64,000 nt of DNA from a virus (Duplodnaviria; Heunggongvirae; Uroviricota; Caudoviricetes): positions 133,683 through 197,682 of IMG/VR virus record IMGVR_UViG_3300007735_000926. One strand, 5' to 3'. Below, piece after piece: positions 112 to 58,185 of the stretch. The notes below the pieces were generated by a model, which saw only the letters and a list, made by a program, of their open reading frames with translations, had not been told where the DNA came from and did no database searches. Made by a program: the position numbers and the translations under genes. Numbering within the stretch: the first letter of the stretch is position 1; the number at the start of each line of letters is the position of its first letter.

Positions 112-125
112 TGCTGTAGTTTTTA
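112..125 (-). promoter_or_regulatory. copy of conserved gene-upstream motif (plus-strand form TGYTGTAGTTTTTA)
   Basis: One of ~50 near-identical copies placed 8-12 nt upstream of minus-strand ATG codons. Confidence 0.6.
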
Positions 126-127
126 TT

Positions 128-430
128 TCAAATATCGAGGATTTTGCGTGTCTCGAAATCCCAAGGATCGATGCCAAATTTTTCAAGCACTTCATCATGG
201 TAATCCATCAGCGCATCGATTGGATCATTTGCACCAATTACAATGTCAACATATTCATCTATTTGCTCTTCGATGTTTGCTTTGTCTTTCGCACGTTTTG
301 TTTGAATTGTGCGATTGGAAAGACAGTAGGAACACGAACCATGATTTCTACATGTGCAATCCCAGCGAGCAGAACCACGATATTCTTTGCGCTTTTCCTT
401 TCCGTATTTGATTGCTTTATCAAGTGCCAT
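128..430 (-). CDS. hypothetical protein
   Basis: 100 aa ORF, ATG at 428-430, motif at 436-455. Confidence 0.5.
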   Translation of the reverse strand: MALDKAIKYGKEKRKEYRGSARWDCTCRNHGSCSYCLSNRTIQTKRAKDKANIEEQIDEYVDIVIGANDPIDALMDYHDEVLEKFGIDPWDFETRKILDI

Positions 431-512
431 GCGATGATTTTGCTGTAGTTTTTAAAGCAGTAACGGTATCACTGCCATATTCCGGTAGGGCATCTACTTA
501 GTGCGAAGATCT

Positions 513-683
513 TTACTTTTCTTTGGCTTTTTCGCGAGCTTCTTCAATGATCTTGTTTACAATCTCATCGATTTTTGGCGCGTTCTCGTAGCTGATCAAA
601 CCTTGGCGAACCAATTCGTGGGAGATGAATCGGAAAGCACCAGCAAGATGACCAGCTTCACGAGCGTAATTGATTGTTTCCAT
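513..683 (-). CDS. small hypothetical protein (56 aa)
   Basis: Hand-translated ORF METINYAREAGHLAG..., ATG at 681-683 preceded by motif at 690-710; below ORF-track size cutoff. Confidence 0.4.
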   Translation of the reverse strand: METINYAREAGHLAGAFRFISHELVRQGLISYENAPKIDEIVNKIIEEAREKAKEK

Positions 684-740
684 GTCGAAATTCTACTGTA
701 GTTTTTATTTTCAAAAATGTTCCATGTGGAACAAAAGCCA

Positions 741-875
741 TCAATTTTCTTCTTCTAATTTTTCAACAATTCGTTGTGCCAGCTTTTCAATCGTATCAGC
801 ACCATATCTTCCCCATACGATATCTGATTGTTCAAGAATCTTTGAAATTTTCTCGATTTTTTCGTTCTTTTCCAT
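741..875 (-). CDS. small hypothetical protein (44 aa)
   Basis: Hand-translated ORF MEKNEKIEKISKILEQ..., ATG 873-875, motif at 885-900. Confidence 0.35.
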   Translation of the reverse strand: MEKNEKIEKISKILEQSDIVWGRYGADTIEKLAQRIVEKLEEEN

Positions 876-1167
876 GGCATTATTTTATTTTAGTTTTTAC
901 CAATATCCGTCTATCCCTGTGACATTTTGACTCTATTCCTGTGTCATTTTGTCGCACCATTTTTCCTTGATTTATCAAGGTTTTAATCATTCAACCGCTG
1001 ATGATTTCCCATGATGTGGGATGATAGATATTTTTTATGTATTCGATCGTTTCTTGCCAGTTATTTTTGATCGTTTGCGATCCTTTGAACTTGCTGCTCA
1101 CAAATTCAATTCGCTTGTCATGTCGAATGAAAACCATGTGCATACAGTATTTTATTTGGATTTATTT

Positions 1168-1503
1168 TTAATATCCAGACACGGGGCGCATTTGATTCTG
1201 TTCATAAGTTGCGCTTTCCCATTCATCATCTTCATGATTTGTCTGGTCATGAAAATACCTTTTGAGAATATCGGACAGCTTATTGATTTTGTTTTGTTGT
1301 GTCTTAGTGAATGTCTGATCAAACATATTGTGATTGCTTTGGATTGCTCCGAGCAAACCACCTCCCAGATAGTTCTGGTAAGCAGACATTCTTGATCCGC
1401 TTTTGAAGCCGAATTGGCTCAGGTCAATTTCCACTCCACCTCCACGATAACTGATTTGTTCCCGAGTGATTGCGGCGATGACGTTTTCTTTGGTGACTCT
1501 CAT
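1168..1503 (-). CDS. hypothetical protein
   Basis: 111 aa ORF; motif at 1513-1530 directly upstream. Confidence 0.5.
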   Translation of the reverse strand: MRVTKENVIAAITREQISYRGGGVEIDLSQFGFKSGSRMSAYQNYLGGGLLGAIQSNHNMFDQTFTKTQQNKINKLSDILKRYFHDQTNHEDDEWESATYEQNQMRPVSGY

Positions 1504-1740
1504 GATGCCTTGATTGTATCGTAGTTTTTACTCCTCTGCGCTATTGGGATTGGCCCAAGATGTTTTCAGGTTGCCCATTTCATAGACCATGACATGTTCA
1601 ACATCTCCGACATTGTTGACCCAAGATTTAATCCATTTTTGAGGATCACCCTTTGGACAGTATTCAATGAAGAAATTTTTCTTTGGATCAACCATGTAAA
1701 CCAGTGCTATTGTTCGCATACCCTGATTCTACCCTATTTT

Positions 1741-2508
1741 TTATTCTTCGGTAATGTTGGCATACTCATATGTATACACTCTACCACTTGAGACCGTCAG
1801 TTTGATTTGACGATTCAATTCATCGTATTCATACGTATACTTGTAACCATGATTATTAATAGTGCTAATTAGATTACCTCGTTCGTCATATGCATATTCA
1901 TGCCATTCATTGGCACCAAACGTTTGTTTGGTCATACGATTAAATTCATCGTATTCAAAGGTAGCACGATATCCCCCACGTTCTTCACTAGTAATCTTGT
2001 TGCCTCTTTCATCATACGTGAAAGTGTTAAAGTTTCCAGATGGAAATGTTTTACGAACAAGACGATTGTTATCATCATAGTCCATTTTGGTATCATTTTC
2101 GAAAATCATATTGCCTCGATCATCGTATTGATATACCGTTTTATATCCGAACATATCAACTCTGCTTACAATACGATTATTTTGATCGCGTTCAACAACG
2201 TCAAAACGTTTACGCATATCTTTGGGATATTCCTCTGGAGGAACAACACGAAGCACCCTGAGTTTATCGGTGACGCTTTTATCTTCGCTGTCAATCACCT
2301 TGCCAAGAATTTCAATTTCCAGAAGAACAAAGTCATCTTCGGGAAAATAATACTTGATGGTGTCTGCCATGTTTCGACAAAAGTGAAATCCATATTTACA
2401 CAGTTGCAGCTTATCAGAGGTGTAAGTTTTGCCAACACGGTAAGTTTGATTACGACACTTGAAATTATAAGTGGCTTTGTAAGCAATGAATGGCATAGAA
2501 TTTTCCAT
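1741..2508 (-). CDS. YD-repeat (RHS-repeat) protein with conserved Cys/His N-terminal domain; paralog of 32986-33498 and 34284-34859
   Basis: C-terminal tandem YDxRGN / YEYDExNR repeats; N-terminal AYKATYNFKCRNQTYRVGKTYTSDKL..C.YGFHFC shared with two paralogs; track ORF begins at a GTG (2556), ATG candidates at 2508 and 2496. Confidence 0.6.
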   Translation of the reverse strand: MENSMPFIAYKATYNFKCRNQTYRVGKTYTSDKLQLCKYGFHFCRNMADTIKYYFPEDDFVLLEIEILGKVIDSEDKSVTDKLRVLRVVPPEEYPKDMRKRFDVVERDQNNRIVSRVDMFGYKTVYQYDDRGNMIFENDTKMDYDDNNRLVRKTFPSGNFNTFTYDERGNKITSEERGGYRATFEYDEFNRMTKQTFGANEWHEYAYDERGNLISTINNHGYKYTYEYDELNRQIKLTVSSGRVYTYEYANITEE

Positions 2509-3304: not shown

Positions 3305-3322
3305 ATTGTATTGTAGTTTTTA
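3305..3322 (-). promoter_or_regulatory. conserved gene-upstream motif copy (ATTGTATTGTAGTTTTTA)
   Basis: Canonical copy; minus sense TAAAAACTACAATACAAT, ATG 10 nt downstream. Confidence 0.6.
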
Positions 3323-3744: not shown

Positions 3745-3776
3745 GTCGTTATTGTATCGTAGTTTTTACCGCTCGA

Positions 3777-4979: not shown

Positions 4980-5011
4980 TTTGATGGGGTGATTCTACTC
5001 TAGTTTTTATC

Positions 5012-5884: not shown

Positions 5885-5902
5885 ATTGTATTGTAGTTTT
5901 TA
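5885..5902 (-). promoter_or_regulatory. conserved gene-upstream motif copy
   Basis: ATTGTATTGTAGTTTTTA; TAA stop of upstream gene (5900-5902) is the first three bases of the motif on the minus strand. Confidence 0.6.
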
Positions 5903-6310: not shown

Positions 6311-6337
6311 GTCGTAATTGTATTGTAGTTTTTTAAT

Positions 6338-6829: not shown

Positions 6830-6860
6830 GTCGTAATTGTATTGTAGTTTTTAAATTATT

Positions 6861-7199: not shown

Positions 7200-7223
7200 G
7201 TGTTAATTGTATTGTAGTTTTTA

Positions 7224-7623: not shown

Positions 7624-7705
7624 TAGCGTTGACAGGACTCGAACCTGCATGCTGTTAAGCGACTGATTTTGAGTCAGTTGTGAATACCAATTCCACCACA
7701 ACGCC
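7624..7705 (-). tRNA. tRNA-Leu (anticodon CAA), type II with long variable arm
   Basis: Hand fold: acceptor GGCGTTG/CAACGCT, D stem GTGG/TCAC, anticodon loop CTCAAAA, variable arm, T arm GCAGG-TTCGAGT-CCTGT. Confidence 0.7.
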
Positions 7706-7715
7706 GTTTTGAGAG

Positions 7716-7789
7716 TTGTCCAGAGGGGACTCGAACCCCTGACCCGACCCTTATAAAGAATCCGCTCTAACCAACTGAGCTACTGGACG
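7716..7789 (-). tRNA. tRNA, anticodon loop TTTATAA (apparent UAU, Ile reading AUA); C1-A72 mismatch
   Basis: Cloverleaf: D arm GCTC-AGTTGGTTA-GAGC, anticodon stem GATTC/GGGTC, T arm AGGGG-TTCGAGT-CCCCT. Confidence 0.6.
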
Positions 7790-7856
7790 TTTGAATTTTA
7801 CTGTAGTTTTTATCCGATCTTTTCTTCCACCAGAGATTTACAATTAGGGGTAAGGG

Positions 7857-7945
7857 TAAGAGCGGTGGGATTCGAACCCACAACCGTTCTGGACGGATTT
7901 GACCGATTATGAGTCGGCTGGTTTAACCATTCACCTCACACTCTT
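7857..7945 (-). tRNA. type II (long variable arm) tRNA with CAU anticodon loop CTCATAA; unusual combination
   Basis: 89 nt; 3-bp D stem with long D loop, anticodon stem GCCGA/TCGGT, variable arm hairpin CCGT-CCAGAA-ACGG, T arm GTGGG-TTCGAAT-CCCAC. Confidence 0.5.
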
Positions 7946-7960
7946 ATGAAAATTAAAGTG

Positions 7961-8045
7961 TGGCCACATCGGGACTCGAACCCGAACGCCCGAAGGGGCA
8001 GCAGATTTTAAATCTGCGGTGTCTACCAAGTTCCACCACATGGCC
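7961..8045 (-). tRNA. tRNA-Leu (anticodon UAA), type II
   Basis: Anticodon stem GCAGA/TCTGC with loop TTTAAAA, variable arm GCCC-CTTC-GGGC, T arm TCGGG-TTCGAGT-CCCGA. Confidence 0.65.
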
Positions 8046-8074
8046 ATATGAAAATTGTAATCTAGTTTTTTAAA

Positions 8075-8153
8075 TGGAGGGACAGACTGGATTCGAACCA
8101 GCATTGAATCCATTACGGTGCTACTCCTTAGAAGGGAGTTCCGATACAGTCCC
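8075..8153 (-). tRNA. tRNA-like gene with encoded CCA; irregular fold (anticodon-like hairpin loop CTTCTAA, UCU/Arg?)
   Basis: T arm GCTGG-TTCGAAT-CCAGT followed by acceptor CTGTCCC-T-CCA; 5' GGGACTG pairs with one mismatch; standard D arm not resolvable by eye. Confidence 0.4.
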
Positions 8154-8670: not shown

Positions 8671-8871
8671 GTGTGTATTGTATTGTAGTTTTTATACCGG
8701 AGAATTTCAATTGCTCATCAATGTTGGAACCTTCGCAGATGATACTGCGCAATACTTCTTCCAGCCATCCAACAACATAACCATATTCAATTTTGTTTTC
8801 CGGTGAATACTTACGAGAGCGTTCTTCAACGTTTGAGACCAGTTTATTTATTTTTTCCTTATCGGTCATTT
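8651..8871 (-). CDS. hypothetical protein (start likely ATG 8869-8871 overlapping upstream stop as ATGA)
   Basis: Track ORF 8651-8908; internal Met MTDKEKINKL coincides with stop of small upstream gene. Confidence 0.35.
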
Positions 8872-9011: not shown

Positions 9012-9025
9012 GTCAGTATTGTATT

Positions 9026-9196
9026 CTAGTTTTTTAGATATTCCTTGTAGCTCTCAATTAATTCAGGAAAGGCATTCACAATTCGCCCAAGATTTTCATT
9101 GTCGGCATAGCACATGGTGTCTGCCAGCGATTTCACAAAGCTTCCACCGTATTGTTTCATCAACACAATGATTGGCAGTAATTCGTCTCTCGTCAT
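9026..9196 (-). CDS. small hypothetical protein (56 aa)
   Basis: Hand-translated MTRDELLPIIVLMKQYGGSF...; motif at 9205-9222; its TAG stop sits inside the downstream motif CTAGTTTTT. Confidence 0.35.
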   Translation of the reverse strand: MTRDELLPIIVLMKQYGGSFVKSLADTMCYADNENLGRIVNAFPELIESYKEYLKN

Positions 9197-9210
9197 GTCC
9201 TGATTGTATT

Positions 9211-9420
9211 TTAGTTTTTATTTGCGAGCTTCAATCCTTGATAGATTGCCGATACCGTCTGAAGATCCCAACCATACATGGCAGCATCATCGAATAGATT
9301 GGCAAGAGCGTTCAGATAGTCACCGCAGTGGTGGGCAGTGCCAAGGAAATTCCACACAGCTTCTTCGTTTGTGGAGTCTTTGGCGAACCCTGCGATCTCT
9401 TCCTTAGTGAGTCGTTGCAT
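9211..9420 (-). CDS. hypothetical protein
   Basis: 69 aa; motif at 9427-9444. Confidence 0.4.
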   Translation of the reverse strand: MQRLTKEEIAGFAKDSTNEEAVWNFLGTAHHCGDYLNALANLFDDAAMYGWDLQTVSAIYQGLKLANKN

Positions 9421-9445
9421 GCCCTGATTGTATCGTAGTTTTTAT

Positions 9446-10207: not shown

Positions 10208-10228
10208 GGTATTATTGTGTTCTAGTTT

Positions 10229-10471
10229 TTAATCCCGGTGGGTATACATGGATGCAAAATACACTTCAAATTTATTACCTTTTTTTCCACGAATGGATGA
10301 CCACTTGGAAACAGAGATACATTCTTTTTCATGAGTGGAAACAAAATGGTCCCTTGCTGCTTTTTTAGAGAATTCAAAAGTTTGACCATATGCTGCAACC
10401 AATTCATTATCAATTCGAACATAAGTTCGACACTTAAATGGTTGTGGTTGAATATCGGCCAAAGTTTTCAT
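10229..10471 (-). CDS. hypothetical protein
   Basis: 80 aa; TAA stop is first triplet of downstream motif. Confidence 0.4.
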   Translation of the reverse strand: MKTLADIQPQPFKCRTYVRIDNELVAAYGQTFEFSKKAARDHFVSTHEKECISVSKWSSIRGKKGNKFEVYFASMYTHRD

Positions 10472-10498
10472 GTCCGTATTGTGTTCTAGTTTTTTAAA

Positions 10499-10738: not shown

Positions 10739-10767
10739 GGCATTATTTTGTTCTAGTTTTTATTCGA

Positions 10768-11843: not shown

Positions 11844-11865
11844 GAGAAGATCTTACGCTAGTTTT

Positions 11866-11904
11866 TACCAACAAAATCCCCTCCCCGATTAAAGGGAGGG
11901 GATC
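11866..11904 (-). terminator. rho-independent terminator (GGGGAGGGGAT stem, 7-nt loop, U-tract on minus strand)
   Basis: ATCCCCTCCCC-GATTAAA-GGGGAGGGGAT followed on minus strand by TTTTGTT; immediately followed by gene-upstream motif. Confidence 0.55.
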
Positions 11905-12680: not shown

Positions 12681-12720
12681 GCGTTTATTTTGGTGTAGTT
12701 TTTAAAATATGATTGGATTT

Positions 12721-13116: not shown

Positions 13117-13135
13117 GCCGTGATTTTGTCGTAGT

Positions 13136-13171
13136 TTTTAAAAGGGGAGGGAGGTTAGATCCTCCCTCCCC
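13136..13171 (-). terminator. rho-independent terminator (11-bp GGGGAGGGAGG stem)
   Basis: GGGGAGGGAGG-TTAGAT-CCTCCCTCCCC followed on minus strand by TTTTAAAAA which merges into next gene's motif. Confidence 0.55.
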
Positions 13172-14217: not shown

Positions 14218-14294
14218 ATATTTGTTGGTTTAGTTGGTTTGTTGGGTGTGCCCCGATTATATCCTAGTTTTTAAACGAATTTTTTCCGTGTCGA

Positions 14295-14854: not shown

Positions 14855-14868
14855 GGCACGATTATTCT

Positions 14869-15219
14869 CTAGTTTTTACGAAAGTGAAATGCTGATGAAC
14901 TCAAATCGTCAAAACCATTCATTTCACCAAAAAATTTCCCAGCAATTTTTTTATTGGAAAGAAGATAACGAGTGGCTTGGCGAATGCGATTCTTCTTTCT
15001 TTTGGAAAGAGATTTGTATTTTGAAACTTCGAAGTGGATAGGTGATTGTGAAGTTTTATTGAATACTTCTCCCAAATCTACTGAGACATGATAAGATCCA
15101 TTATCACCATCCACATGAATTACGAATTTGTCATCTCTATAGTGAGCATAGCCACATTCATCCAATTCATGAATCGTCTCAAGTTCACCGAAAAGTTCGA
15201 ATAAAGTTTCTTTGAGCAT
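14869..15219 (-). CDS. hypothetical protein
   Basis: 116 aa; motif at 15225-15243. Confidence 0.4.
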   Translation of the reverse strand: MLKETLFELFGELETIHELDECGYAHYRDDKFVIHVDGDNGSYHVSVDLGEVFNKTSQSPIHFEVSKYKSLSKRKKNRIRQATRYLLSNKKIAGKFFGEMNGFDDLSSSAFHFRKN

Positions 15220-15334
15220 GGCACGATTATTCTCTAGTTTTTAAAATGGCAGCCCGTTGACTTTTAGAGGGTTGGAACCTCATGGATGGTTTTACCGTGT
15301 AAGACGGGCCAAGCTTACACACCAACCACAATTC

Positions 15335-16555: not shown

Positions 16556-16579
16556 GAGACGATTATGTTTTAGTTTTTA

Positions 16580-17086: not shown

Positions 17087-17120
17087 TGCTTTGATTATAT
17101 TTTAGTTTTTATGAGGTTGA

Positions 17121-17318: not shown

Positions 17319-17346
17319 ATTGATTGCGCTTATTGTATTCTAGTTT

Positions 17347-42797: not shown

Positions 42798-42824
42798 AAT
42801 GTTGCGTCATTTGTATCGTAGTTT

Positions 42825-43172
42825 TTATTCGCTAACTTGAAGCTCAAGAAAACGAACATTTTCTTCAGGCAAATCTTTAAAATATTTCAATGCTCTCTTT
42901 TCGAGATTTTTGAAAAGATTTTCAATTTCATTTTGAGTATTGGGGCAGATCGGTAAAAAATAATCTTTGCTCAAAGCTCTGGCAACTGCAATCTTGATGC
43001 CTAATTTTTTATCGAAACGATCAATCGGATTACAGAGTGAATACCCGTAGTAAACCCCATTTTCTTCTCTAACAGCAACTACAATTCCTCGTGGATTATT
43101 CTTTCGATCTCTGATGAATTGCTTAATTATATTTTTATTATCAGTGTTCATATTTTTAAAAATTACTTTCAA
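42825..43172 (-). CDS. hypothetical protein; paralog of 23926-24186
   Basis: Shared PRGIVV...LGIKIAVARA core. Confidence 0.45.
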   Translation of the reverse strand: MKVIFKNMNTDNKNIIKQFIRDRKNNPRGIVVAVREENGVYYGYSLCNPIDRFDKKLGIKIAVARALSKDYFLPICPNTQNEIENLFKNLEKRALKYFKDLPEENVRFLELQVSE

Positions 43173-48512: not shown

Positions 48513-48532
48513 TGTGGTGCTTGTATTGTATG

Positions 48533-49198
48533 CTAGTTTTTATAAATGACACTGGTGAATCCATTTTTTGCAGCTTCTTCTGGACTGAGAGTGGCATACC
48601 ACGATCTTTTTTTACAAAGAGTTGCTCGGGTTCCCGTATTTTGACAAATGGTTGATGATAAATATTCAGCAAAGCTGACCATTCCAGCAACTTTAGCATC
48701 ACCACCTTCGTAGTAAAAGCGAAGTTGTCCAAACTTTTCTTTGATTTGATGAATGGTTACAGGAGCGACAGGTACAGTATCCCATTTGTAGTATGGATAA
48801 AATATTTTTTGAATCTTTCGTAATTTTTCAACGATTGCAAATTCCCGTTTGTATTTTTCGTTCAGAGCAGCACGAGCAGACACAGAGAGTAGGAGTGTCT
48901 TATATTCAGGCTTGTTGTAGGGATTGTATTTCCTATACAAAGGGTCGTATATTTTACTAAAAATATTTTTGTAAAACCATTGTTTTACAAGACGCAATGG
49001 TTTACGCTTTTCAATATAGACCAATTGCAAGCAACAATATGTGCTTATTGCTTTGCAAAGGTCTTTTACCAAATTCTCCCAACCAACAGGACACCAAATA
49101 CCACAAGACGGTGCAGTTGGGTTACCATCGCTATCTTTTGGGAACAGCGTTGGATACGTTTTGATCAGATATTGATCAAATGGAATTTGTGAGTTCAT
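48533..49198 (-). CDS. hypothetical protein
   Basis: 221 aa; motif-variant upstream. Confidence 0.4.
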   Translation of the reverse strand: MNSQIPFDQYLIKTYPTLFPKDSDGNPTAPSCGIWCPVGWENLVKDLCKAISTYCCLQLVYIEKRKPLRLVKQWFYKNIFSKIYDPLYRKYNPYNKPEYKTLLLSVSARAALNEKYKREFAIVEKLRKIQKIFYPYYKWDTVPVAPVTIHQIKEKFGQLRFYYEGGDAKVAGMVSFAEYLSSTICQNTGTRATLCKKRSWYATLSPEEAAKNGFTSVIYKN

Positions 49199-49723: not shown

Positions 49724-50495
49724 ATTTTCTTAGTTTGTTTTGAGATTCAGCTTGTTTGAATTTTTGGATATATTCTTTATCTTTGCAACCTGTCAGATGT
49801 TGGAAATTATCCAAAATGAAGAATTTAAACCATCCAGATGACATCGTAGTTGCAAGCTTTTTTAGACTCTGACCATAAGCGGCAGCGTGTCCACATGTAA
49901 AGTCCGATGGAATATGATAACGCTCAAGAGCAGTTACCCACACTTCTTCTTTTACTAAGAGTATTTTATCATCGAATCGCAATTTGTCAAATCCTGATTG
50001 AGAGCAATTGACACCTTCAACGATCAGCTTTTCATAAAGCGGTTTGTCGTAAACTGCAACAGCTTCGTGAATGTCATCGTGAACATATTTGCGAGTTACT
50101 GCATCTTCAAAGAATGTAGTGCTGGTTTTGTTCTTGAGACTTGCCCACTTTTTACCATGCACGCCAATCCAGTCTTTGACAAGACTGTAATACAATGGCT
50201 TGTCAACTACACAACCTTTATTTTTAAGGAACAAAATATCAGACATTGTTTTCTGCCAATGAATGTCCCAGCCTGCATGACTCATTTTGAGCGTCAACAG
50301 AAAGTTAGGATCAATGTAGATGTTGCTCTTGTTGTTATCAAGAATGTATTGAAAGCTATCAACCCAATAATGCTGAACTTCCTTTGTCATATGAGAAGTT
50401 TTTGAAATAACATCAAGGTCTTTCGGCGTTCTCTTGAAATCCGGGAACCATGCTGACATTGCATGCGATCCGATGATTAGTGTTTCTCTAGGCAT
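49713..50495 (-). CDS. predicted minimal nucleotidyltransferase (GS...DLD motif)
   Basis: IIGSHAMSAWFPDFKRTPKDLDVISK. Confidence 0.4.
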   Translation of the reverse strand: MPRETLIIGSHAMSAWFPDFKRTPKDLDVISKTSHMTKEVQHYWVDSFQYILDNNKSNIYIDPNFLLTLKMSHAGWDIHWQKTMSDILFLKNKGCVVDKPLYYSLVKDWIGVHGKKWASLKNKTSTTFFEDAVTRKYVHDDIHEAVAVYDKPLYEKLIVEGVNCSQSGFDKLRFDDKILLVKEEVWVTALERYHIPSDFTCGHAAAYGQSLKKLATTMSSGWFKFFILDNFQHLTGCKDKEYIQKFKQAESQNKLRKYEN

Positions 50496-50521
50496 GTTGG
50501 TATTCTAGTGCAGTGTTTAAT

Positions 50522-50908
50522 TCATGTCCAGAGATAACCGGAATACTTAACGATTGTAGCCATGGCATCCATATCTTTTTTATCCATATCTTCATACACT
50601 TTCCAATTGTAGTTTTCTTCAAGAGCTTTACGTTCGTTTTTGATATAGTTGTAAACCCTACGAAGCTCTCCGTCAACAGCTTTGACATTATCGATGTATT
50701 GTTGATCAATATGCCCTGCTGCGAGTTCAGCAGAAAAATCAATCTGGTCCTGTAGACCCTCTTCATTCTCAACGTAGTCGATGAGAATTTCAAATAGAAC
50801 AAGCTGAATCAGTTCAGGTTTGTCCATCCAATGATTGGGAATCTTGTTGGTCAACCAGCGTTGCTTAGGAAAGAAAAAATCTTTAATTGATGACCAAATG
50901 CTTTTCAT
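50522..50908 (-). CDS. hypothetical protein
   Basis: 128 aa. Confidence 0.4.
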   Translation of the reverse strand: MKSIWSSIKDFFFPKQRWLTNKIPNHWMDKPELIQLVLFEILIDYVENEEGLQDQIDFSAELAAGHIDQQYIDNVKAVDGELRRVYNYIKNERKALEENYNWKVYEDMDKKDMDAMATIVKYSGYLWT

Positions 50909-52717: not shown

Positions 52718-52750
52718 AGTGTTTGAGATGTTTGCAGTTTAGGTCAGTGT

Positions 52751-53290
52751 TTAATTAGCGGTTCTTTCAATGAGAAACTCTTTAACATCTTCCTCAAAAG
52801 GATCTTCGGGAAAATTAACACCGTAATAATCATCAATTTTCAGATAATTTGTGTCCTGAGTTTTTTGAATTCCGATGAATTGAATCTTACCTTCATTTTG
52901 GCGTCGTGGCAGATTGTCGATCAGCACATTGTTTGGATTGGCATATTCATGGGGAATAATGGAACCATATCTACCACCATACGCTGTTGAAACCCAAACC
53001 ATACTAGCTTCTTGATCTTCTCTAGCGAAGATGTCATTAGGATCAAATCCCCAGCCAGCAAGCTCATTAACCTTTTCAGCATAATCTCTTGTTGCTGTGG
53101 TCAGAATATGGACATTTTCCTCTCCAACCAGTTCACGGCTGAATCTGATCAGTTCATGACTGCATGGACGAATGATGGTGTAGTATGTATAACTATCACC
53201 AAGAGAAAATGCTACATGATCTTGCTTTGGATCATCTAAAAGCGTGTGGATAAGAGTTTCGTCAATATCCCAAAAAATTTTATTTATCAT
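52751..53290 (-). CDS. HAD-superfamily phosphatase, FCP1/NIF-like
   Basis: IFWDIDETLIHT (DxDxT) motif; start taken at internal ATG (MINKIFWD). Confidence 0.5.
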   Translation of the reverse strand: MINKIFWDIDETLIHTLLDDPKQDHVAFSLGDSYTYYTIIRPCSHELIRFSRELVGEENVHILTTATRDYAEKVNELAGWGFDPNDIFAREDQEASMVWVSTAYGGRYGSIIPHEYANPNNVLIDNLPRRQNEGKIQFIGIQKTQDTNYLKIDDYYGVNFPEDPFEEDVKEFLIERTAN

Positions 53291-53300: not shown

Positions 53301-53741
53301 TTACGATTTTGTGTGCCAGAGTTGCTCAAGAACTTCTTTGATGTTCTTTGCTCCCCATTGGTTTGCGCTATGGACGTAGCAGATTGGAGTCTTGATCCTA
53401 CCACCCTCGTTCCATTTGTCAATCAAATATTCAGCACAGTGTTTACCAGTTGGAATTTTTAAATTACCATATTCAACCACACCAGTCAAACTTGTAACTG
53501 AAAAATAATGATCCATATGTTCCGTATGTAAATCATGATCAAAGCTGATCACATCAGGAATTCCATTCTTTTCAATATACGCTACAAACTCTGCATAAGA
53601 GCGAACAATATCCCAATTGCCATTTGGAATGCCTGAAATATTCTCAAGTGATTTACCAGAAATAATTTGCTTCTTATCGTCTCGTCTTGGGTAAATCCAA
53701 GCGTCTTTCGGTTTTCTTATATCATCGAGGAATACGTTCAT
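53301..53741 (-). CDS. hypothetical protein
   Basis: 146 aa. Confidence 0.4.
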   Translation of the reverse strand: MNVFLDDIRKPKDAWIYPRRDDKKQIISGKSLENISGIPNGNWDIVRSYAEFVAYIEKNGIPDVISFDHDLHTEHMDHYFSVTSLTGVVEYGNLKIPTGKHCAEYLIDKWNEGGRIKTPICYVHSANQWGAKNIKEVLEQLWHTKS

Positions 53742-54214
53742 AGTAATAAATGGTTGAATGATTTTTTAACAATGTGTGGAGCTAATATATTTGCCTGTTG
53801 CTCCCATGGCTGTGTTCTGTATCTTTTATAAACAGTATGTGAACTTCCGTAGTATTTTTTACCTTTCCACAATTTTTCTTCTGTAAATGGGATGAGTTGT
53901 AATTGTTTTGTATGCAGCTGTTGAATATGAATAATTTCATGGGCTAACGTTTTAAACATTTTATTAACATCTTCATTAGATCTTAATAAATTCATATGAT
54001 ACGCATTAATACAAATTAGTTCTTTTTTAGCATATGCGATCACATTAAATGGATTGAATCGGAATATTTGAACCTCTACCTCATTTGGCAACTTTAATTT
54101 TATATCAATTGGGCAATTTAATGAATTTATAAAATATTCGATATAAGGAATTGCTGTGCAATATCCTGTGATATTATCTTTTCTAGTTACATTAAAATTT
54201 ACTAACATTACCAA
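53738..54214 (-). CDS. putative zinc metallopeptidase (HExxH)
   Basis: LAHEIIHIQQ motif. Confidence 0.35.
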   Translation of the reverse strand: MVMLVNFNVTRKDNITGYCTAIPYIEYFINSLNCPIDIKLKLPNEVEVQIFRFNPFNVIAYAKKELICINAYHMNLLRSNEDVNKMFKTLAHEIIHIQQLHTKQLQLIPFTEEKLWKGKKYYGSSHTVYKRYRTQPWEQQANILAPHIVKKSFNHLLL

Positions 54215-54530
54215 AATTTATTAAAAAATTCTAAGTGTTTTAATTATCAGGATGTAAATTGCTACGTAAGTGAGTGCCGCTAATAGTATCGAAGTTCCAA
54301 TGATGGTCAGCACCCAACCCCACAACGGAAGTGATAGTGTAAATGTTTGTGTTAAAAAGTCAATCATACATCATTCAAAGGGTTGAATCCTTTAATTTCT
54401 CCACAAGTTACACATTGGCATTCATAAATGAAAAAACGTCCCTCTTCATCGGTATTAACTGTTCTTTCTTTTATAATTACCCATTTATGTTCATGCCAAG
54501 AACCAGTAAATAAAAATTTTAGCAATCTGA

Positions 54531-54797
54531 TCATAATCCATCCCGTCCTTCGAACTGTTCACAATCCTTTTTATTTTGTGCTAGAATTTCAGCAGCCTTT
54601 TTGAATTTAGCATGCTGTTCTTCGTTCATAGCATTCATAAAGTTTTTCAGGTCTTGAGAAAATTCTTCTACCGTAACATGAGGAGATACAGACGAAGGAA
54701 TTTCGCCTTTGAGTTTTACGATTGGTGAGTGTTTTGCATTCATATTATTCTTCAAATTTAATAACGTCCAACTTAAGCTCTTCTTTAAGCTGTTCAA
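54531..54797 (-). CDS. hypothetical protein
   Basis: 88 aa. Confidence 0.35.
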   Translation of the reverse strand: MNSLKKSLSWTLLNLKNNMNAKHSPIVKLKGEIPSSVSPHVTVEEFSQDLKNFMNAMNEEQHAKFKKAAEILAQNKKDCEQFEGRDGL

Positions 54798-55185
54798 ACA
54801 ACTTAAGCTTTTGCTCTTTGGTCTTAGCCAGCCGCTTAAGCTTGGCTTCTGCCTTTTTCTTTTCTTCCAACTCTTTACGCTTACGTTCTGCTTCCTTTGC
54901 CTTTTTTAAGGCAGCTTCGCGTTTTTCAACGATTTGTTTGATCGCACTTTGAGCGGAAATCTGCTTTTCCTTTTCAATCAAAAAAGCAAATCCGTTGTTA
55001 GCTTTAAGATTTCTATTGAAATCGCGAACAAATTCTTCCAAATCGCCAAATTGAGTTTCATCTACTTCTTCCCATGGAGAGTGATCTTCAACCATGATTC
55101 GGGTAATGTCTAAGTAATCATCACCGTAATTGAACCATATAGTGTCTGCAAATGCTGTCGCAATTATAAGTTTAACTTGTTTCAT
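54745..55185 (-). CDS. coiled-coil Lys/Glu-rich protein
   Basis: C-terminal KEAERKRKELEEKKKAEAKLKRLAK. Confidence 0.4.
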   Translation of the reverse strand: MKQVKLIIATAFADTIWFNYGDDYLDITRIMVEDHSPWEEVDETQFGDLEEFVRDFNRNLKANNGFAFLIEKEKQISAQSAIKQIVEKREAALKKAKEAERKRKELEEKKKAEAKLKRLAKTKEQKLKLFEQLKEELKLDVIKFEE

Positions 55186-55186
55186 A

Positions 55187-55609
55187 TTATTCTTTCCACA
55201 TGTTTAAAGTTTTTAGGAATGCTTCTGCTCTTTGCGATGCAGTTGCTCTAAGCAATACAGCCGAAGTCTCGACATAATCGAGAACCTCAAGACCGACGAT
55301 TTTATACAGAGCTAATGCATAGTCGGTCATCCGCCCAGCGCGTTCTGGAGTCCATTCTAAAATTTTTTCCGCTTCGTGCATCGCGTTCAAATCGTTTAGA
55401 TAGTTGGGAGGCTGCGGGTTCCATGATTCACGGTCGCGTGTAAATGCAAGTCCTTCTTTACTTTGATACCATATTGCAGGAGGTATCCATACTTCCCAAC
55501 TATGTCCTTTTGGTTTGGAATCGAAAAGGTCGCCGCCTCCAACGTTTTGCCATTTAAGTTTCCATCCGCAAACTTTTGCTATGGCTATGTTTTGGTCTTC
55601 GGGTTTCAT
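55187..55609 (-). CDS. hypothetical protein
   Basis: 140 aa. Confidence 0.4.
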   Translation of the reverse strand: MKPEDQNIAIAKVCGWKLKWQNVGGGDLFDSKPKGHSWEVWIPPAIWYQSKEGLAFTRDRESWNPQPPNYLNDLNAMHEAEKILEWTPERAGRMTDYALALYKIVGLEVLDYVETSAVLLRATASQRAEAFLKTLNMWKE

Positions 55610-55610
55610 A

Positions 55611-56087
55611 TTATCCTAACACTTTGAAAAATTCAATGTTCACCGATTGGACTCGTTCAAAGTATCCGTCCCAAGGTGCATATCCGCAACTGTTAGGATG
55701 ATCTCTCCACTCATCGGTCCAACCTTTATCAATCGCCTCTTTAGCATCAACAGCATCATCAGGATTTTCGGTGACAAAAGCAACTGTTACATTTCCATAT
55801 GAACGACCAAAGGTATTCCCGCTTTCATACGTTACCACTACAACATACACGTATTCTGCATCATATGTTGATTGAGGAACGCTAAAAGATTCAAAGTTCC
55901 ACTTATTCAGCAGATCCTTGTTTCGTGAAACTTTTGTTACGCTGGAATCATAGTGGGTTTCCCAACTGCCCCATTCCACATCTTCACGTTCATCACGGGT
56001 GCAGGTTTGATCAATTTCAATGTATAGAGACAATCGCTCATCCACCTTTGGCGGCTCGATCTTCTTTGGCGTTTTAATCTTTTTCAT
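55611..56087 (-). CDS. hypothetical protein
   Basis: 158 aa. Confidence 0.4.
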   Translation of the reverse strand: MKKIKTPKKIEPPKVDERLSLYIEIDQTCTRDEREDVEWGSWETHYDSSVTKVSRNKDLLNKWNFESFSVPQSTYDAEYVYVVVVTYESGNTFGRSYGNVTVAFVTENPDDAVDAKEAIDKGWTDEWRDHPNSCGYAPWDGYFERVQSVNIEFFKVLG

Positions 56088-56584
56088 AGTTCTACAAATT
56101 CTTCTCTGTTTTCATTACAATATTTTGCTTCGTTTTGCTTTTTCTCTAACTCATTAATTTTTGCTTTAACCGCGTCTCCAATCGAATAGTAATGTTTGGT
56201 TTGATCATTGATGAATTTGTCATTTTCATCATAGCATTCTTCATACTTTTCGATTAGGCTCAAAACCTCAAGCATTTCAGACTCTTTGATTCCAATGTAA
56301 TCATCACTTCCATAAACAAAACGTGTGACTTTGCCATAATTGCTTTTTGAAGTTTTAATGATCATTGTGGCATCATCAAGAAAACAATTCGTGAACAATC
56401 TGAAAAGATATTCAACGTTGTCAAGCGTGGTGTTTGTTACACCGAAAAGTTCATAGCAACTCTGAGCGCGTAGGTTCAAAGTGCGATGTAGAACTTCCCA
56501 ATCTTTATGTCTTTCAAGACCGTGTTGCAAAAGCTCAATACGCTCTTGGAAATTTTCAGTAATTCGATCAAGGATGTTTTTCAT
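56084..56584 (-). CDS. hypothetical protein
   Basis: 166 aa. Confidence 0.4.
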   Translation of the reverse strand: MKNILDRITENFQERIELLQHGLERHKDWEVLHRTLNLRAQSCYELFGVTNTTLDNVEYLFRLFTNCFLDDATMIIKTSKSNYGKVTRFVYGSDDYIGIKESEMLEVLSLIEKYEECYDENDKFINDQTKHYYSIGDAVKAKINELEKKQNEAKYCNENREEFVEL

Positions 56585-56601
56585 AGTAGTGGCAAGTAAT
56601 T

Positions 56602-56922
56602 TTATCGTTCAATCAATCCTTCTTCAGTTACTTCTAAAATTGTATATGCTTTTGACCAATCATCAGACATCGTTTTGTGGCGATTTTGAGCTTCCTCTAA
56701 TGTGTCGTAATATTGTATTTTATCTGCTGTCCTGATTTTCTCTACGCCATTTCGAACCACCTTTGACTCTAGCATAGGGAAGCCAGATGTTAAATATCCT
56801 TCGCCATGCTTCTTTTCAAGAAGATATTCATGTGGATTTAAAAATGTCAAACAAAACTTGCCAACTGGATGTTCAATAGTTGGTCGATATTTTCGGTTGG
56901 TATGTTCAATATAGATTTTCAT
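56602..56922 (-). CDS. hypothetical protein
   Basis: 106 aa. Confidence 0.4.
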   Translation of the reverse strand: MKIYIEHTNRKYRPTIEHPVGKFCLTFLNPHEYLLEKKHGEGYLTSGFPMLESKVVRNGVEKIRTADKIQYYDTLEEAQNRHKTMSDDWSKAYTILEVTEEGLIER

Positions 56923-57341
56923 AGTAATGGCAAGTGATCAGTAAGTCCGATAAACTTTTCGTCCCAATTTGGGCCGATTGATAGCGCAGTGAATGTTTTC
57001 ACTCCATTGAATTCGGTCGCTCCATTGTCCTCAACAATATACGAGATCAATCCATTGTCAAGAGCTTTTTGATGAAGTTCATGAAGTTCTTCTTCGCTGT
57101 TGACATAGACACAAATCTTACGAAATGAGTTTTCGAGCCAATGAGTAATTTCCTCAGCTTGTTCGGTGTTGTAGTGTCGAGTCTCAAAAACACCCAATGT
57201 GGTTGAATAGTCATGCGTGTAGCTGGCCCGCATACCTTTGGTAAGAAACGCCATACTTGCATGGGCAACTTGACTACAATATTTTCCAGTTCTAAGATTT
57301 GGAAATTTTCTGACTACAATAACTTGTTTAGTGTTTTTCAT
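56919..57341 (-). CDS. peptidyl-tRNA hydrolase, PTH2 family
   Basis: QVIVVRKFPNLRTGKYCSQVAHASMAF and TFTALSIGP align with PTH2 VVRxDLxMGKGKxAAQCSHAA / TVLGIGP. Confidence 0.6.
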   Translation of the reverse strand: MKNTKQVIVVRKFPNLRTGKYCSQVAHASMAFLTKGMRASYTHDYSTTLGVFETRHYNTEQAEEITHWLENSFRKICVYVNSEEELHELHQKALDNGLISYIVEDNGATEFNGVKTFTALSIGPNWDEKFIGLTDHLPLL

Positions 57342-57559
57342 AACAAAAATTTACCAGTGATGAATTGTATTTGCAATAATAAAGAAGCAGGTTATTACAT
57401 TGATCACCCAAAACACTGTTCGAATAATCGCTGCAAAATCTGCTTCTTTATCGTTTAGGGTCGCCTTTGGACCCATTGCATTAGCCCAAATCCTCCACCA
57501 CCTTCTTACAGAATTTATTACCATTGGTATTCATATTTCGTGCGTTCGTGGTTTAATTA

Positions 57560-57967
57560 TTAACGCAATTTCAAAGTATTTTTGATATTTTGTTCCTGTC
57601 TTGAAAGAACTTCCTCTGGGACATTATGCACATTTTGCCCGCCATGACGATTTTCAAGCACCAGTGAAAAAATCATCATATTCCGTTTTTCACCTTCTCT
57701 GAGATAAAAATTGAAATCAGATTCTTTTGTATTGGTGTTTGCGACCACAATGGTATGAGTCGAAGGATCATCACACAATTTCAAAAATTTTTCTTGACAA
57801 GATTTATGTGCGGCACCCAATTTCGAAGGATCAAAATTATAATTACCATTTTCATCGGTAAAAAAATCATCTGCGCAACAAATTGCTGAACCGGGAGCGA
57901 TAATGTTTGCGAAGGTTGACTTTCCAGCCCCGCTGACTGCTCTCAAAAGGATTAATCGTGTTTGCAT
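57560..57967 (-). CDS. P-loop kinase (AAA_33-like; possible polynucleotide 5'-kinase)
   Basis: Walker A AVSGAGKST; small 135 aa kinase fold similar to Pnk kinase domains. Confidence 0.35.
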   Translation of the reverse strand: MQTRLILLRAVSGAGKSTFANIIAPGSAICCADDFFTDENGNYNFDPSKLGAAHKSCQEKFLKLCDDPSTHTIVVANTNTKESDFNFYLREGEKRNMMIFSLVLENRHGGQNVHNVPEEVLSRQEQNIKNTLKLR

Positions 57968-57981
57968 GGGTGCATTGTATT

Positions 57982-58185
57982 CTAGTTTTTAAAACCATCT
58001 GACAACACTTTGCTGTAGTAATCGGCAATTTCAAAATGGAAATCTTTTTCATTTCTAATCTCACCTTCTTTAAGATGGATGTAAGCATCTGGAAAATCTT
58101 CACCCATGTCTGACCACACTTCGATCACGTTTTCACCTTCCTTCATAATAAAGGAGTAACTACTAATATTACCTGTATATTTCAT
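57982..58185 (-). CDS. hypothetical protein
   Basis: 67 aa. Confidence 0.3.
   Translation of the reverse strand: MKYTGNISSYSFIMKEGENVIEVWSDMGEDFPDAYIHLKEGEIRNEKDFHFEIADYYSKVLSDGFKN

Follow-up and report, generated by a model that had tools for sequence, protein, structure and literature searches.

A repeated 18-base motif as the putative promoter of leaderless pre-replicative mRNAs in an uncultured freshwater T4-like phage

The 64-kb window of phage DNA analysed here (64,000 nt of the IMG/VR record IMGVR_UViG_3300007735_000926; all coordinates are those of the window unless another locus is named) carries about 50 nearly identical copies of an 18-base motif, which we call M1. With a probability of roughly three in four, we read M1 as the promoter that serves the pre-replicative (early or middle) genes in a T4-like myovirus, uncultured and from freshwater, at which transcription would start on the ATG itself and give leaderless mRNAs. 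An earlier examination of the letters alone (the sequence-only reading) had already suggested a promoter, and this suggestion is strengthened by the confinement of the copies to one strand, a -10 profile of the sigma-70 type, a pyrimidine-purine (Y-R) step at the canonical distance for a start site, and copies before tRNA genes. The predicted leaderless state of the messages is well supported by sequence statistics, which come from two independent promoter classes in about 1.2 Mb of related DNA.

Copy number and placement of M1

In minus sense the M1 consensus is TAAAAACTA[C/G][A/G]ATAcAAT. With up to two mismatches allowed, the corresponding plus-strand pattern TTGTATYGTAGTTTTTA has 32 matches in the window, all on the plus strand (that is, in minus sense), where 0.09 are expected from shuffled sequences. 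A position weight matrix (PWM) built from these 32 matches and iterated gives 47 copies at 15 bits or more (the strong cut-off) and 52 at 12 bits or more (the lax one), and the opposite strand has no match at 8 bits or more. Nearly all copies directly precede minus-strand genes. About 50 near-identical copies in this position had been reported, which agrees with our 47 or 52 on a single strand against about 0.1 by chance, and the example coordinates given at the time are correct to within 1 nt. The copies run from 108-125 to 57974-57991 and are densest in the first 25 kb, among small genes; there is none in the 15 kb upstream of the last one.

The stop codon of the upstream gene had been described as frequently overlapping the motif and often forming its first triplet. 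The first description is fair, since upstream stops fall within M1 in 15 of the 52 copies (26 if those at most 10 nt upstream are included), but the second is overstated: the stop of the upstream open reading frame (ORF) is the first TAA of M1 in 8 copies, and in 7 others it is a TAG or TAA at motif bases 8-10 (the TAG of CTAG). Such overlap is accounted for by the tight packing of the genes, and the idea of a transcription-restart or processing element gains no support from it. Terminators are almost lacking, and a stem-loop precedes only 2 of the ~50 copies, these being the two GC hairpins noticed before (11875-11904 and 13144-13171), each directly upstream of a copy.

A genome-wide use of the motif did not hold up. 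M1 is limited to the pre-replicative region of small ORFs, with a density of 0.64 per kb in early regions, and is essentially missing from 430 kb of structural-region DNA on the same phage contigs, where 3 weak sites were found.

Anatomy and predicted start site

In the aligned window copies TAcAAT is followed by five unconserved bases and then by C (93%) and A (87%). With that A as +1, TAcAAT lies at -12 to -7, the canonical place of a -10 element, and C-A forms the pyrimidine (-1)/purine (+1) step. TAAAAACTA and two semi-conserved bases occupy -24 to -13, and the conserved, phage-specific block upstream of the -10 can be written as TTAAAAACTAGA at -25 to -14, followed by one variable base. 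A-11 and T-7 of TAcAAT are nearly invariant, a profile that is the signature of sigma domain 2, which flips out these two bases. The alignments contain no signal for a -35 element or a Shine-Dalgarno sequence, as the sequence-only reading had observed: there is no information content at -39 to -26, either in the window copies or in 450 contexts from related loci (see below). An extended -10 TG at -15/-14 is not present either, -15 being G or C and -14 being A or G.

The motif had been said to end about 8-12 nt before the ATG. We find a gap of exactly 6 nt in 31 of the 52 copies and of 7-14 nt in 11 more. In those 31 the predicted +1 is the first base of the start codon (29 ATG and 2 GTG starts, the latter with +1 at G), and in the other 11 the predicted leader is at most 8 nt long. 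This fixed spacing puts the start site on the A of the ATG, and the mRNAs are thus predicted to be leaderless. In the copies with leaders of 19-33 nt (14256, 36943, 38498 and 40511) the spacing between the box and C-A or C-G is unchanged, and it is the distance to the ATG that varies.

M1 copies and M1-like sites in the window (coordinates, strand, sequence, predicted +1, PWM score in bits, and what follows)
108-125 (-): TAAAAACTACAGCAAAAT-actgg-CA, +1 at 101, PWM 22.5; ATG of 33-codon ORF at +1
437-454 (-): TAAAAACTACAGCAAAAT-catcg-CA, +1 at 430, PWM 22.5; ATG of 100-codon ORF at +1
690-707 (-): TAAAAACTACAGTAGAAT-ttcga-CA, +1 at 683, PWM 24.0; ATG of 56-codon ORF at +1
882-899 (-): TAAAAACTAAAATAAAAT-aatgc-CA, +1 at 875, PWM 22.5; ATG of 44-codon ORF at +1
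1513-1530 (-): TAAAAACTACGATACAAT-caagg-CA, +1 at 1506, PWM 26.4; ATG of 111-codon ORF 3 nt after +1
1726-1743 (-): TAAAAAATAGGGTAGAAT-caggg-TA, +1 at 1719, PWM 18.2; ATG of 63-codon ORF at +1
3305-3322 (-): TAAAAACTACAATACAAT-caaag-CA, +1 at 3298, PWM 27.1; ATG of 92-codon ORF 3 nt after +1
3751-3768 (-): TAAAAACTACGATACAAT-aacga-CA, +1 at 3744, PWM 26.4; ATG of 138-codon ORF at +1
4992-5009 (-): TAAAAACTAGAGTAGAAT-caccc-CA, +1 at 4985, PWM 23.6; ATG of 103-codon ORF 6 nt after +1
5885-5902 (-): TAAAAACTACAATACAAT-aacaa-CA, +1 at 5878, PWM 27.1; ATG of 192-codon ORF at +1
6317-6334 (-): AAAAAACTACAATACAAT-tacga-CA, +1 at 6310, PWM 24.3; ATG of 136-codon ORF at +1
6836-6853 (-): TAAAAACTACAATACAAT-tacga-CA, +1 at 6829, PWM 27.1; ATG of 163-codon ORF at +1
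7206-7223 (-): TAAAAACTACAATACAAT-taaca-CA, +1 at 7199, PWM 27.1; ATG of 112-codon ORF at +1
7795-7812 (-): TAAAAACTACAGTAAAAT-tcaaa-CG, +1 at 7788, PWM 23.9; tRNA-Ile(UAU) 7716-7789, +1 at most 1 nt from tRNA 5' end
8054-8071 (-): AAAAAACTAGATTACAAT-tttca-TA, +1 at 8047, PWM 20.8; tRNA-Leu(UAA) 7961-8045, +1 2 nt before tRNA 5' end
8677-8694 (-): TAAAAACTACAATACAAT-acaca-CA, +1 at 8670, PWM 27.1; ATG of 103-codon ORF at +1
9018-9035 (-): AAAAAACTAGAATACAAT-actga-CA, +1 at 9011, PWM 23.9; ATG of 46-codon ORF at +1
9203-9220 (-): TAAAAACTAAAATACAAT-cagga-CA, +1 at 9196, PWM 24.9; ATG of 56-codon ORF at +1
9427-9444 (-): TAAAAACTACGATACAAT-caggg-CA, +1 at 9420, PWM 26.4; ATG of 69-codon ORF at +1
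10214-10231 (-): TAAAAACTAGAACACAAT-aatac-CA, +1 at 10207, PWM 25.3; ATG of 253-codon ORF at +1
10478-10495 (-): AAAAAACTAGAACACAAT-acgga-CA, +1 at 10471, PWM 22.5; ATG of 80-codon ORF at +1
10745-10762 (-): TAAAAACTAGAACAAAAT-aatgc-CA, +1 at 10738, PWM 22.9; ATG of 79-codon ORF at +1
11850-11867 (-): TAAAAACTAGCGTAAGAT-cttct-CA, +1 at 11843, PWM 16.9; after GC hairpin 11875-11904, ATG of 107-codon ORF at +1
12687-12704 (-): TAAAAACTACACCAAAAT-aaacg-CG, +1 at 12680, PWM 20.8; GTG of 163-codon ORF at +1
13123-13140 (-): TAAAAACTACGACAAAAT-cacgg-CA, +1 at 13116, PWM 22.6; after GC hairpin 13144-13171, ATG of 131-codon ORF at +1
14256-14273 (-): TAAAAACTAGGATATAAT-cgggg-CA, +1 at 14249, PWM 24.0; ATG of 344-codon DUF932 ORF 32 nt after +1, leadered, CA kept
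14861-14878 (-): TAAAAACTAGAGAATAAT-cgtgc-CA, +1 at 14854, PWM 20.6; ATG of 89-codon ORF at +1
15226-15243 (-): TAAAAACTAGAGAATAAT-cgtgc-CA, +1 at 15219, PWM 20.6; ATG of 116-codon ORF at +1
15542-15559 (-): M1-like, AAAAAACTAGAATACACT-gaaga-AG, PWM 21.4; within ORF, without the C-A step, possibly internal or inactive
16562-16579 (-): TAAAAACTAAAACATAAT-cgtct-CA, +1 at 16555, PWM 21.6; ATG of 68-codon ORF at +1
17094-17111 (-): TAAAAACTAAAATATAAT-caaag-CA, +1 at 17087, PWM 23.0; ATG of 33-codon ORF at +1
17332-17349 (-): TAAAAACTAGAATACAAT-aagcg-CA, +1 at 17325, PWM 26.7; ATG of 65-codon ORF 7 nt after +1
20469-20486 (-): TAAAAACTAGAATACACT-cgtct-CA, +1 at 20462, PWM 24.2; ATG of 321-codon ATPase ORF at +1
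20886-20903 (-): TAAAAACTAAGATACAAT-ccagc-CA, +1 at 20879, PWM 24.2; ATG of 63-codon ORF at +1
23195-23212 (-): weak M1-like, AAAAAACTAGAGAATACT-ggagc-GA, PWM 15.2; within ORF, doubtful
24196-24213 (-): TAAAAACTAGAATACAAT-acaaa-CA, +1 at 24189, PWM 26.7; ATG of 86-codon ORF 3 nt after +1
25367-25384 (-): TAAAAACTACGTTACAAT-tcatg-TG, +1 at 25360, PWM 23.2; GTG of 146-codon ORF at +1
29337-29354 (-): TAAAAACTAGAGTATCAT-cattg-CA, +1 at 29330, PWM 19.7; ATG of 339-codon T4-type RNA ligase 1 ORF at +1
30896-30913 (-): TAAAAACTACGATACAAT-cgctg-CA, +1 at 30889, PWM 26.4; ATG of 161-codon ORF 8 nt after +1
34269-34286 (-): TAAAAACTAACATACAAT-actga-CA, +1 at 34262, PWM 22.8; ATG of 246-codon ORF 2 nt after +1
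36943-36960 (-): TATAAT version, +1 at 36936, PWM 21.3; before C-terminal piece of split NadV, ATG 33 nt after +1
38498-38515 (-): TATAAT version, +1 at 38491, PWM 25.2; before N-terminal piece of NadV, ATG 25 nt after +1
39532-39549 (-): TATAAT version, PWM 24.4; duplicate of the 38498 copy, antisense into LAGLIDADG ORF, only a 12-codon ORF after it
40511-40528 (-): TATAAT version, +1 at 40504, PWM 22.0; before UvdE, ATG 19 nt after +1
42810-42827 (-): TAAAAACTACGATACAAA-tgacg-CA, +1 at 42803, PWM 21.1; PRPP synthetase-like gene, ATG 6 nt after +1
48525-48542 (-): TAAAAACTAGCATACAAT-acaag-CA, +1 at 48518, PWM 24.6; ATG of 251-codon ORF 6 nt after +1
57974-57991 (-): TAAAAACTAGAATACAAT-gcacc-CA, +1 at 57967, PWM 26.7; ATG of 135-codon ORF at +1, most upstream copy

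All five copies with no start codon within 8 nt of +1 (14256, 36943, 38498, 39532 and 40511) have a perfect TATAAT, and the leaderless ones mostly have TAcAAT, cAAAAT or TAgAAT, the leaderless copy at 17094 with its TATAAT being an exception. The TATAAT-type copies may form a functional subclass. The motif also varies along the genome (window 108-1530; related locus L119, 11379-13286): copies at the downstream end read ACAGCAAAAT or ACACCAAAAT, with C at -12, and those in the middle read ACAATACAAT. This position-dependent variation suggests local duplication or gene conversion of promoter-gene cassettes.

Conservation in related phages

An exact-pattern scan of IMG/VR returned at least 114 loci, and among the matches listed 79 had three or more matrix hits and were kept as the family set. 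The limit of three sites was adopted after loci with a single hit proved to belong to unrelated phages, such as L102, with an SU10-type capsid closest to that of Roseobacter phage CRP-7. In the genes that they share with the window, the 79 loci have a DNA identity of 66-82% to it, and the related contigs with M1 (88-207 kb) also carry T4-type clamp loader, terminase and baseplate genes.

To avoid circularity, family sites were chosen only by the 8-mer AAAAACTA, which gave 450 unique contexts in the 79 loci. Their profile has A-11 in 98%, T-7 in 96% and T-12 in 75%, with -10, -9 and -8 conserved at 53-81% and -6 to -2 unconserved, followed by Y-1 (90%), A+1 (88%), T+2 (81%) and G+3 (73%). It is thus a TAnnnT element with A-11 and T-7 as the most conserved positions, as in -10 elements of the sigma-70 family. 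An ATG stands exactly at +1 in 301 of the 426 sites that also have A-11 and T-7 (71%), and in the 125 sites lacking it a Y-R step is found at that position in 66%, compared with 4-47% at shifted positions. In alignments of orthologous copies -23 to -16, -11, -9, -7 and -1 are invariant (100%) and the flanks are 73-80% identical; -10, -8 and -4 to -2 drift, and codon periodicity begins directly after +3.

M1 before tRNA genes

Five tRNA genes lie at 7624-8153, the fifth (8078-8153) having been found by Rfam only. Two of them are directly behind M1, with the predicted +1 at most 2 nt from the mature 5' end, and in relatives four further tRNAs have M1 with offsets within 5 nt. The presence of M1 copies at -1 to 5 nt before tRNA genes points to a transcriptional and not a translational signal, and the two window tRNAs, with a predicted start so near the mature 5' end, would hardly have to be trimmed by RNase P, if at all. 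The notion of strictly leaderless tRNAs is nevertheless weakened, since M1 lies directly upstream of only some 6 of the 48 unique family tRNAs, at offsets between -5 and +5. In the UAU-anticodon tRNA C1 and A72 appear to be mismatched, which is a feature of bacterial initiator tRNA.

A second promoter class

The homing endonuclease genes lack M1, as had been noted, and have a T4-late-type box in its place. In 430 kb of structural-region loci of the family, TAAATA-N5-ATG (before ORFs of at least 60 codons) occurs 83 times, with 23 occurrences for N6 and at most 3 for each of the other spacings between 0 and 12 nt. The same N5 peak is found in early-region family loci (48, versus at most 8 at other spacings). 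This class has the consensus (a/g)cTAAATA-aTaaY-ATG, and in 97% of cases the base at -1 is a pyrimidine.

The T4 late promoter, the class that works with gp55, gp33 and gp45, is an 8-bp TATA box at -13 to -6, one helical turn from the start, and an a/gC variant at -13/-12 is known from Aeh1 (PMC2988020). As that box occupies -13 to -6, N5 is the T4 distance from box to start; with a late box ending at -6 and a spacer of 5 nt, the A of the ATG is once more at +1. By sequence and position, we take this class to be the gp55-type late promoter of T4, predicted to be leaderless. Two unrelated boxes, each at its own correct distance from the ATG, are the strongest argument for the ATG as the transcript 5' end.

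Late-type boxes (TAAATA-N5-ATG) in the window
36985-36998 (+): before Zn-finger/HNH-like ORF 36996-37700, which splits NadV
38539-38552 (+): before LAGLIDADG ORF 38550-39458
28278-28291 (-): before GIY-YIG ORF 27393-28280
61339-61352 (+): before ORF 61350-61811
23846-23859 (-): before ORF 23537-23848

Back-to-back late promoters (TATTTAG-N-CTAAATA) occur in two relatives, at 12400-12450 of L217 and 12673-12710 of L226, where divergent structural genes, leaderless by position, lie about 30 bp apart.

Phage lineage and host

When 20 kb were compared at the nucleotide level with 50,697 phage records, no match was obtained, and the window proteins have distant matches only; they are known only from metagenome sources, with exact occurrences in virome runs from Lake Soyang, where runs ERR2814725/753 contain the DNA. 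Beyond the upstream end of the window, the relative L120 continues with Pfam matches to a tail tube like gp19, to T4 baseplate proteins and to a clamp loader of the gp44 type, and further relatives add a large terminase of T4 type and a baseplate wedge protein like gp6 (also by Pfam). The clamp-loader gene shares contigs with M1 in 3300042544_001590 (207 kb), 3300042319_001471 (178 kb) and 3300021963_000027 (184 kb), and shares 36-41% identity with its counterparts in PA5oct, in pelagiphages and in cyanophages alike. T4-type core genes on M1 contigs, with a clamp loader equally far from these three, place the phage in a deep, uncultured branch of the T4 superfamily.

RNA-repair and translation genes (window 17347-19327, 28311-29330, 53301-57341 and others) include a T4-type RNA ligase 1, an Rnl2-like ligase with an OB domain, RlaP, a cREC_REC cyclic-phosphate domain, a histidine phosphatase, a PTH2 peptidyl-tRNA hydrolase and YqeY. 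In the early region there are also two proteins with RHS repeats and DUF7666 (1741-2556 and one other ORF) and four YopX-family proteins. A protein of 597-630 aa encoded at 20894-22786 has no Pfam or PDB match, but homologues 31-35% identical to it are found in the freshwater/estuarine Synechococcus phages S-CRM01 and S-CBWM1, and one of 26% in gut phage Phass-1. The large window proteins of unknown function gave no PDB match.

Shine-Dalgarno sequences (GGAG, GAGG or AGGA at -20 to -4) precede 0% of the M1-led genes and 6% of the others, compared with 8% of random positions. The 75 window genes with no promoter directly upstream have G-poor, A-rich starts (A at -3 in 67%, at -6 in 73% and at -12/-13 in 55%). 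At these positions A is reported to favour initiation in Flavobacterium johnsoniae, and a surplus of A near -12/-13 has been described as characteristic of Bacteroidetes (PMC6847099). Among three comparison phages treated with the same crude gene caller, a Polaribacter phage (Bacteroidota host) has the start pattern of the window, with 2% Shine-Dalgarno-like starts and A peaks at -13, -6 and -3, whereas pelagiphage HTVC008M has 41% Shine-Dalgarno-like starts and the profile of cyanophage S-CRM01 is flat. The likeness of the A-rich, G-poor starts to those of the Polaribacter phage suggests a host in the Bacteroidota. An RmlA-like gene of a relative is 42-53% identical to genes of many phyla and singles out none, and the host marker genes psbA and whiB were not found in the phage DNA searched.

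Promoters of known host types serving instead of M1 were also considered and rejected, as neither kind is enriched in the window: TTTG-N-TAnnTTTG occurs 4 times (2.9 expected) and E. coli-type -35/-10 pairs 55 times (47 +/- 5.7 expected).

What reads M1

In our view the -10 profile and the likeness of the phage to T4 make a sigma-70-type holoenzyme, perhaps assisted by a phage adaptor at the block at -25 to -14, the most likely reader of M1. Such an RNA polymerase, through a domain 2 of the sigma-70 type, would melt the -10 element by way of A-11 and T-7, and the block would replace the -35 contact and be read by a phage factor, an unusual sigma or the host enzyme directly. For about 60% of the window copies, and 71% across the family, the +1 A would be the A of the ATG and transcripts would begin with 5'-AUG, to be translated without a Shine-Dalgarno sequence or a 5' untranslated region (UTR), while another 15-20% would have leaders of at most 8 nt. 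With terminators nearly absent, transcription from promoters further upstream would run on through each gene as well; the transcripts would be nested and every gene 5'-terminal on an mRNA of its own. With the gp55-type box at N5 putting +1 on the ATG of late genes as well, leaderless expression could be a design principle of the lineage.

Several points weigh against this proposal. The start site is placed by geometry alone, and the block at -25 to -14 corresponds to no known sigma-70 contact, being neither an extended -10 TG nor a -35. If the host belongs to the Bacteroidota, its main sigma would look for a -7 element TAnnTTTG, with T-8, T-6 and G-5 invariant (PMC6847099), and M1 does not match it, since its base at -8 is A and TG is lacking at -6/-5. 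The best 25 of 33 Pfam/PHROG families for about 120 window proteins included no sigma, MotA, AsiA or RNA polymerase, and phmmer and tblastn searches with sigma-70, SigA, RpoE and T4 gp55 (approximate query sequences) gave nothing significant in the sampled DNA; together these negatives cover a part of the genome, namely the window and the sampled family DNA. A gp55 homologue was likewise not found in the family DNA sampled. The ORF at 50522-50908 was tried as gp55 on faint matches (E 0.024, and E 1.1 to 7d7c_F), which were lost with a profile of 13 homologues, and it has no Pfam match. The full motif followed by CATG has no exact match among 185,579 bacterial and archaeal genomes (GTDB), and M1 is therefore not a host promoter type in this form. 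Finally, a stretch of 18 bases that hardly varies over about 50 copies is seen more typically in promoters of a dedicated phage enzyme than in those of host sigma-70.

The last two observations would suit a promoter of a phage-encoded RNA polymerase outside the sigma-70 system (a multisubunit virion enzyme of the phiKZ/AR9 type, or a single-subunit one), the -10 likeness then being coincidental. We regard this as unlikely. It can also draw on the absence of cultured phages with more than one (chance) match to a 30-nt motif query, on related contigs as long as 178-207 kb, and on the early promoters of the AR9 virion polymerase, AAATATATATTAT-(6N)-G, which likewise consist of an AT-rich block, 6 nt and the start (PMC5312081). 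But AR9 transcripts have leaders of 26-491 nt (PMC5312081), the lineage is T4-like and known T4-like phages use the host polymerase (PMC2988021), and the DFDGD and RHGNKG catalytic motifs are missing from 1.09 Mb of family DNA, including the early regions where phiKZ-type phages have their non-virion polymerase genes. The Pfam and PHROG scans of window proteins found no polymerase among the families listed either, and an invariant A-11/T-7 profile is specific to sigma domain 2.

That M1 acts in RNA, as a Shine-Dalgarno substitute or reinitiation signal 6 nt before the AUG or as a processing site that creates 5'-AUG ends, seems to us more improbable still. TAcAAT does sit where a Shine-Dalgarno sequence would be, no set of window genes has a Shine-Dalgarno signal, upstream stops often lie within the motif, and the window is rich in RNA-repair and processing genes (two RNA ligases, RlaP, cREC_REC and PTH2). 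However, copies stand before tRNA genes, those with leaders of 19-33 nt keep their C-A or C-G distance to the box and no fixed distance to the AUG, and the motif is not complementary to the anti-Shine-Dalgarno sequence. Conservation falls on the positions of a DNA -10 element, some 75 genes that lack the motif have another start context (A at -3, -6 and -12/-13), and the unrelated late box has the same promoter-to-ATG geometry. We give least credence to M1 being mainly a dispersed recombination cassette that shuffles small ORFs, with promoter activity secondary or absent, after the manner of the PeSL (promoter-early stem-loop) elements of T4-like phages. The copies do lie in a hyperplastic region of small ORFans in a T4-like genome, which is where PeSLs occur (PMC4122927), one copy and its 15-nt flank are duplicated around an inserted LAGLIDADG gene (38498 and 39532), and another accompanies the endonuclease gene that splits NadV. 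Yet PeSLs are themselves promoters, so a cassette is compatible with promoter function, and recombination alone does not explain the register to start codons, the Y-R step and the selection on individual positions.

Mobile genes and a minor variant

The gene for NadV (nicotinamide phosphoribosyltransferase) is in two pieces, predicted to be expressed separately and both on the minus strand (N part 37636-38466, C part 36043-36903), which are separated by the oppositely oriented Zn-finger/HNH-like ORF 36996-37700 (+) with its late-type promoter. The M1 copy at 36943-36960 is directly before the C piece. Rfam found five tRNAs only in the window and no intron in the split NadV; the arrangement resembles a 'gene in pieces' that arose through a free-standing homing endonuclease. 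The LAGLIDADG ORF 38550-39458 (+) lies between NadV and UvdE, and on both sides of it the same promoter is found with its 15-nt upstream flank (ctgatattttttcaaTAAAAACTACrATATAAT).

A third, minor form, M2, reads AACACTG-N3-TAAACT-N5-CATG. It differs from the M1 block at -24, -20 and -16, and is leaderless by position.

M2 variants in the window
34859-34881 (-): AACACTGctcTAAACTacaaaCA-tg, leaderless
33498-33520 (-): AACACTGatcTAAACTacaaaCA-tg, leaderless
50495-50517 (-): AACACTGcacTAGAATaccaaCA-tg, leaderless
52729-52751 (-): AACACTGaccTAAACTgcaaaCA, 12-nt leader

Implications

A broader picture, which we put forward only tentatively, is that of a whole T4-like lineage without 5' leaders, in which early promoters (of a new, -35-less type with a phage-specific factor) and gp55-type late promoters would both start on the AUG and some tRNAs would have almost no 5' leader, in a host that is probably non-Shine-Dalgarno and possibly a freshwater member of the Bacteroidota with leadered mRNAs of its own. 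F. johnsoniae mRNAs are mostly leadered (87% by more than 10 nt) and its main promoter needs TAnnTTTG (PMC6847099). If the picture is true, leaderless initiation would be the general translation route of the phage, perhaps setting its messages apart from host mRNAs during takeover, and infection would offer a natural system for initiation independent of Shine-Dalgarno sequences and leaders. If transcription starts on the ATG, this would be the first T4-type lineage with leaderless mRNA as the rule, in early and late genes, within the searchable literature; our literature search gave no report joining leaderless mRNA with T4-like phages and a late promoter or gp55.

M1 defines a compact 25-bp cassette of promoter and start, and raises the question of what reads the conserved block at -25 to -14. 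As both motifs mark start codons to the base, they could improve gene calling in these abundant lake phages, where callers based on ribosome-binding sites fail, and M1 and the late box provide a simple sequence tag for finding the lineage in metagenomes.

Comparison with known systems

By sequence, M1 is neither a T4 middle or late promoter nor a Bacteroidetes or E. coli consensus promoter. It resembles the T4 middle promoters, which depend on sigma appropriation by MotA and AsiA, in combining a -10 with a phage-specific upstream box in place of the -35, before pre-replicative genes of T4 type. The T4 MotA box (TGCTT) has its centre near -30, that of the M1 block, which differs in sequence, is near -20, and neither MotA nor AsiA is among the listed protein families of the window. 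With the T4 late promoter M1 shares the missing -35 and the distance of one helical turn from the start, but its sequence is not that of the 8-bp TATAAATA-type box, its offset differs by one base and a block of 12 bp lies upstream. The late mRNAs of T4 carry leaders that contain ribosome-binding sites, unlike those predicted for the lineage's own late class, whose box lies exactly 5 nt before the ATG. This class, (a/g)cTAAATA, belongs to structural and homing-endonuclease genes and resembles the Aeh1 variant (PMC2988020).

The early promoters of the phiKZ/AR9 virion polymerases are like M1 in having a long AT-rich, near-invariant element, 6 nt and the start, in tens of copies before early genes. 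Phages of that type have split beta/beta' polymerases and 5' UTRs of 26-491 nt (PMC5312081), whereas the M1 lineage is T4-like and has no polymerase motif in 1.09 Mb.

Leaderless promoters without a -35 (those of Thermus phage P23-45, mycobacteria, Deinococcus and lambda PRM-cI) share with M1 a -10 that lies 6-7 nt before a 5'-terminal AUG and the lack of a Shine-Dalgarno sequence. Leaderless phage genes include lambda cI, many mycobacteriophage genes and genes of Thermus phage P23-45, and Berdygulova is said to have reported in 2011 that many P23-45 middle and late promoters are leaderless. Those cases are from hosts in which leaderless mRNAs are common, or concern single genes; M1 differs from them in belonging to a T4-like phage, in its new upstream block, in lacking an extended -10 TG and in that two promoter classes share the design. 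P23-45's promoters for middle and late genes are of the extended -10 class (PMC7403470).

The closest described counterpart of M1 is PeSL, a conserved early promoter with a stem-loop that recurs through the hyperplastic regions of T4-like phages, where it brings about the shuffling of genes (PMC4122927). Both are conserved early promoters (M1 by our reading) present in tens of copies before small ORFans in such regions (PMC2839356, PMC4122927), with a single polarity of the copies and an association with gene insertions. PeSL has a sigma-70 -35/-10 pair (TTGACA-N17-TATAAT and variants) in addition to its stem-loop (PMC4122927), whereas M1 has no -35, a new block at -25 to -14, a stem-loop at 2 of about 50 copies and no predicted leader. 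M1 may thus be viewed as a variant of the repeated early promoters of T4-like phages, new in its block, its missing -35 and its missing leader.

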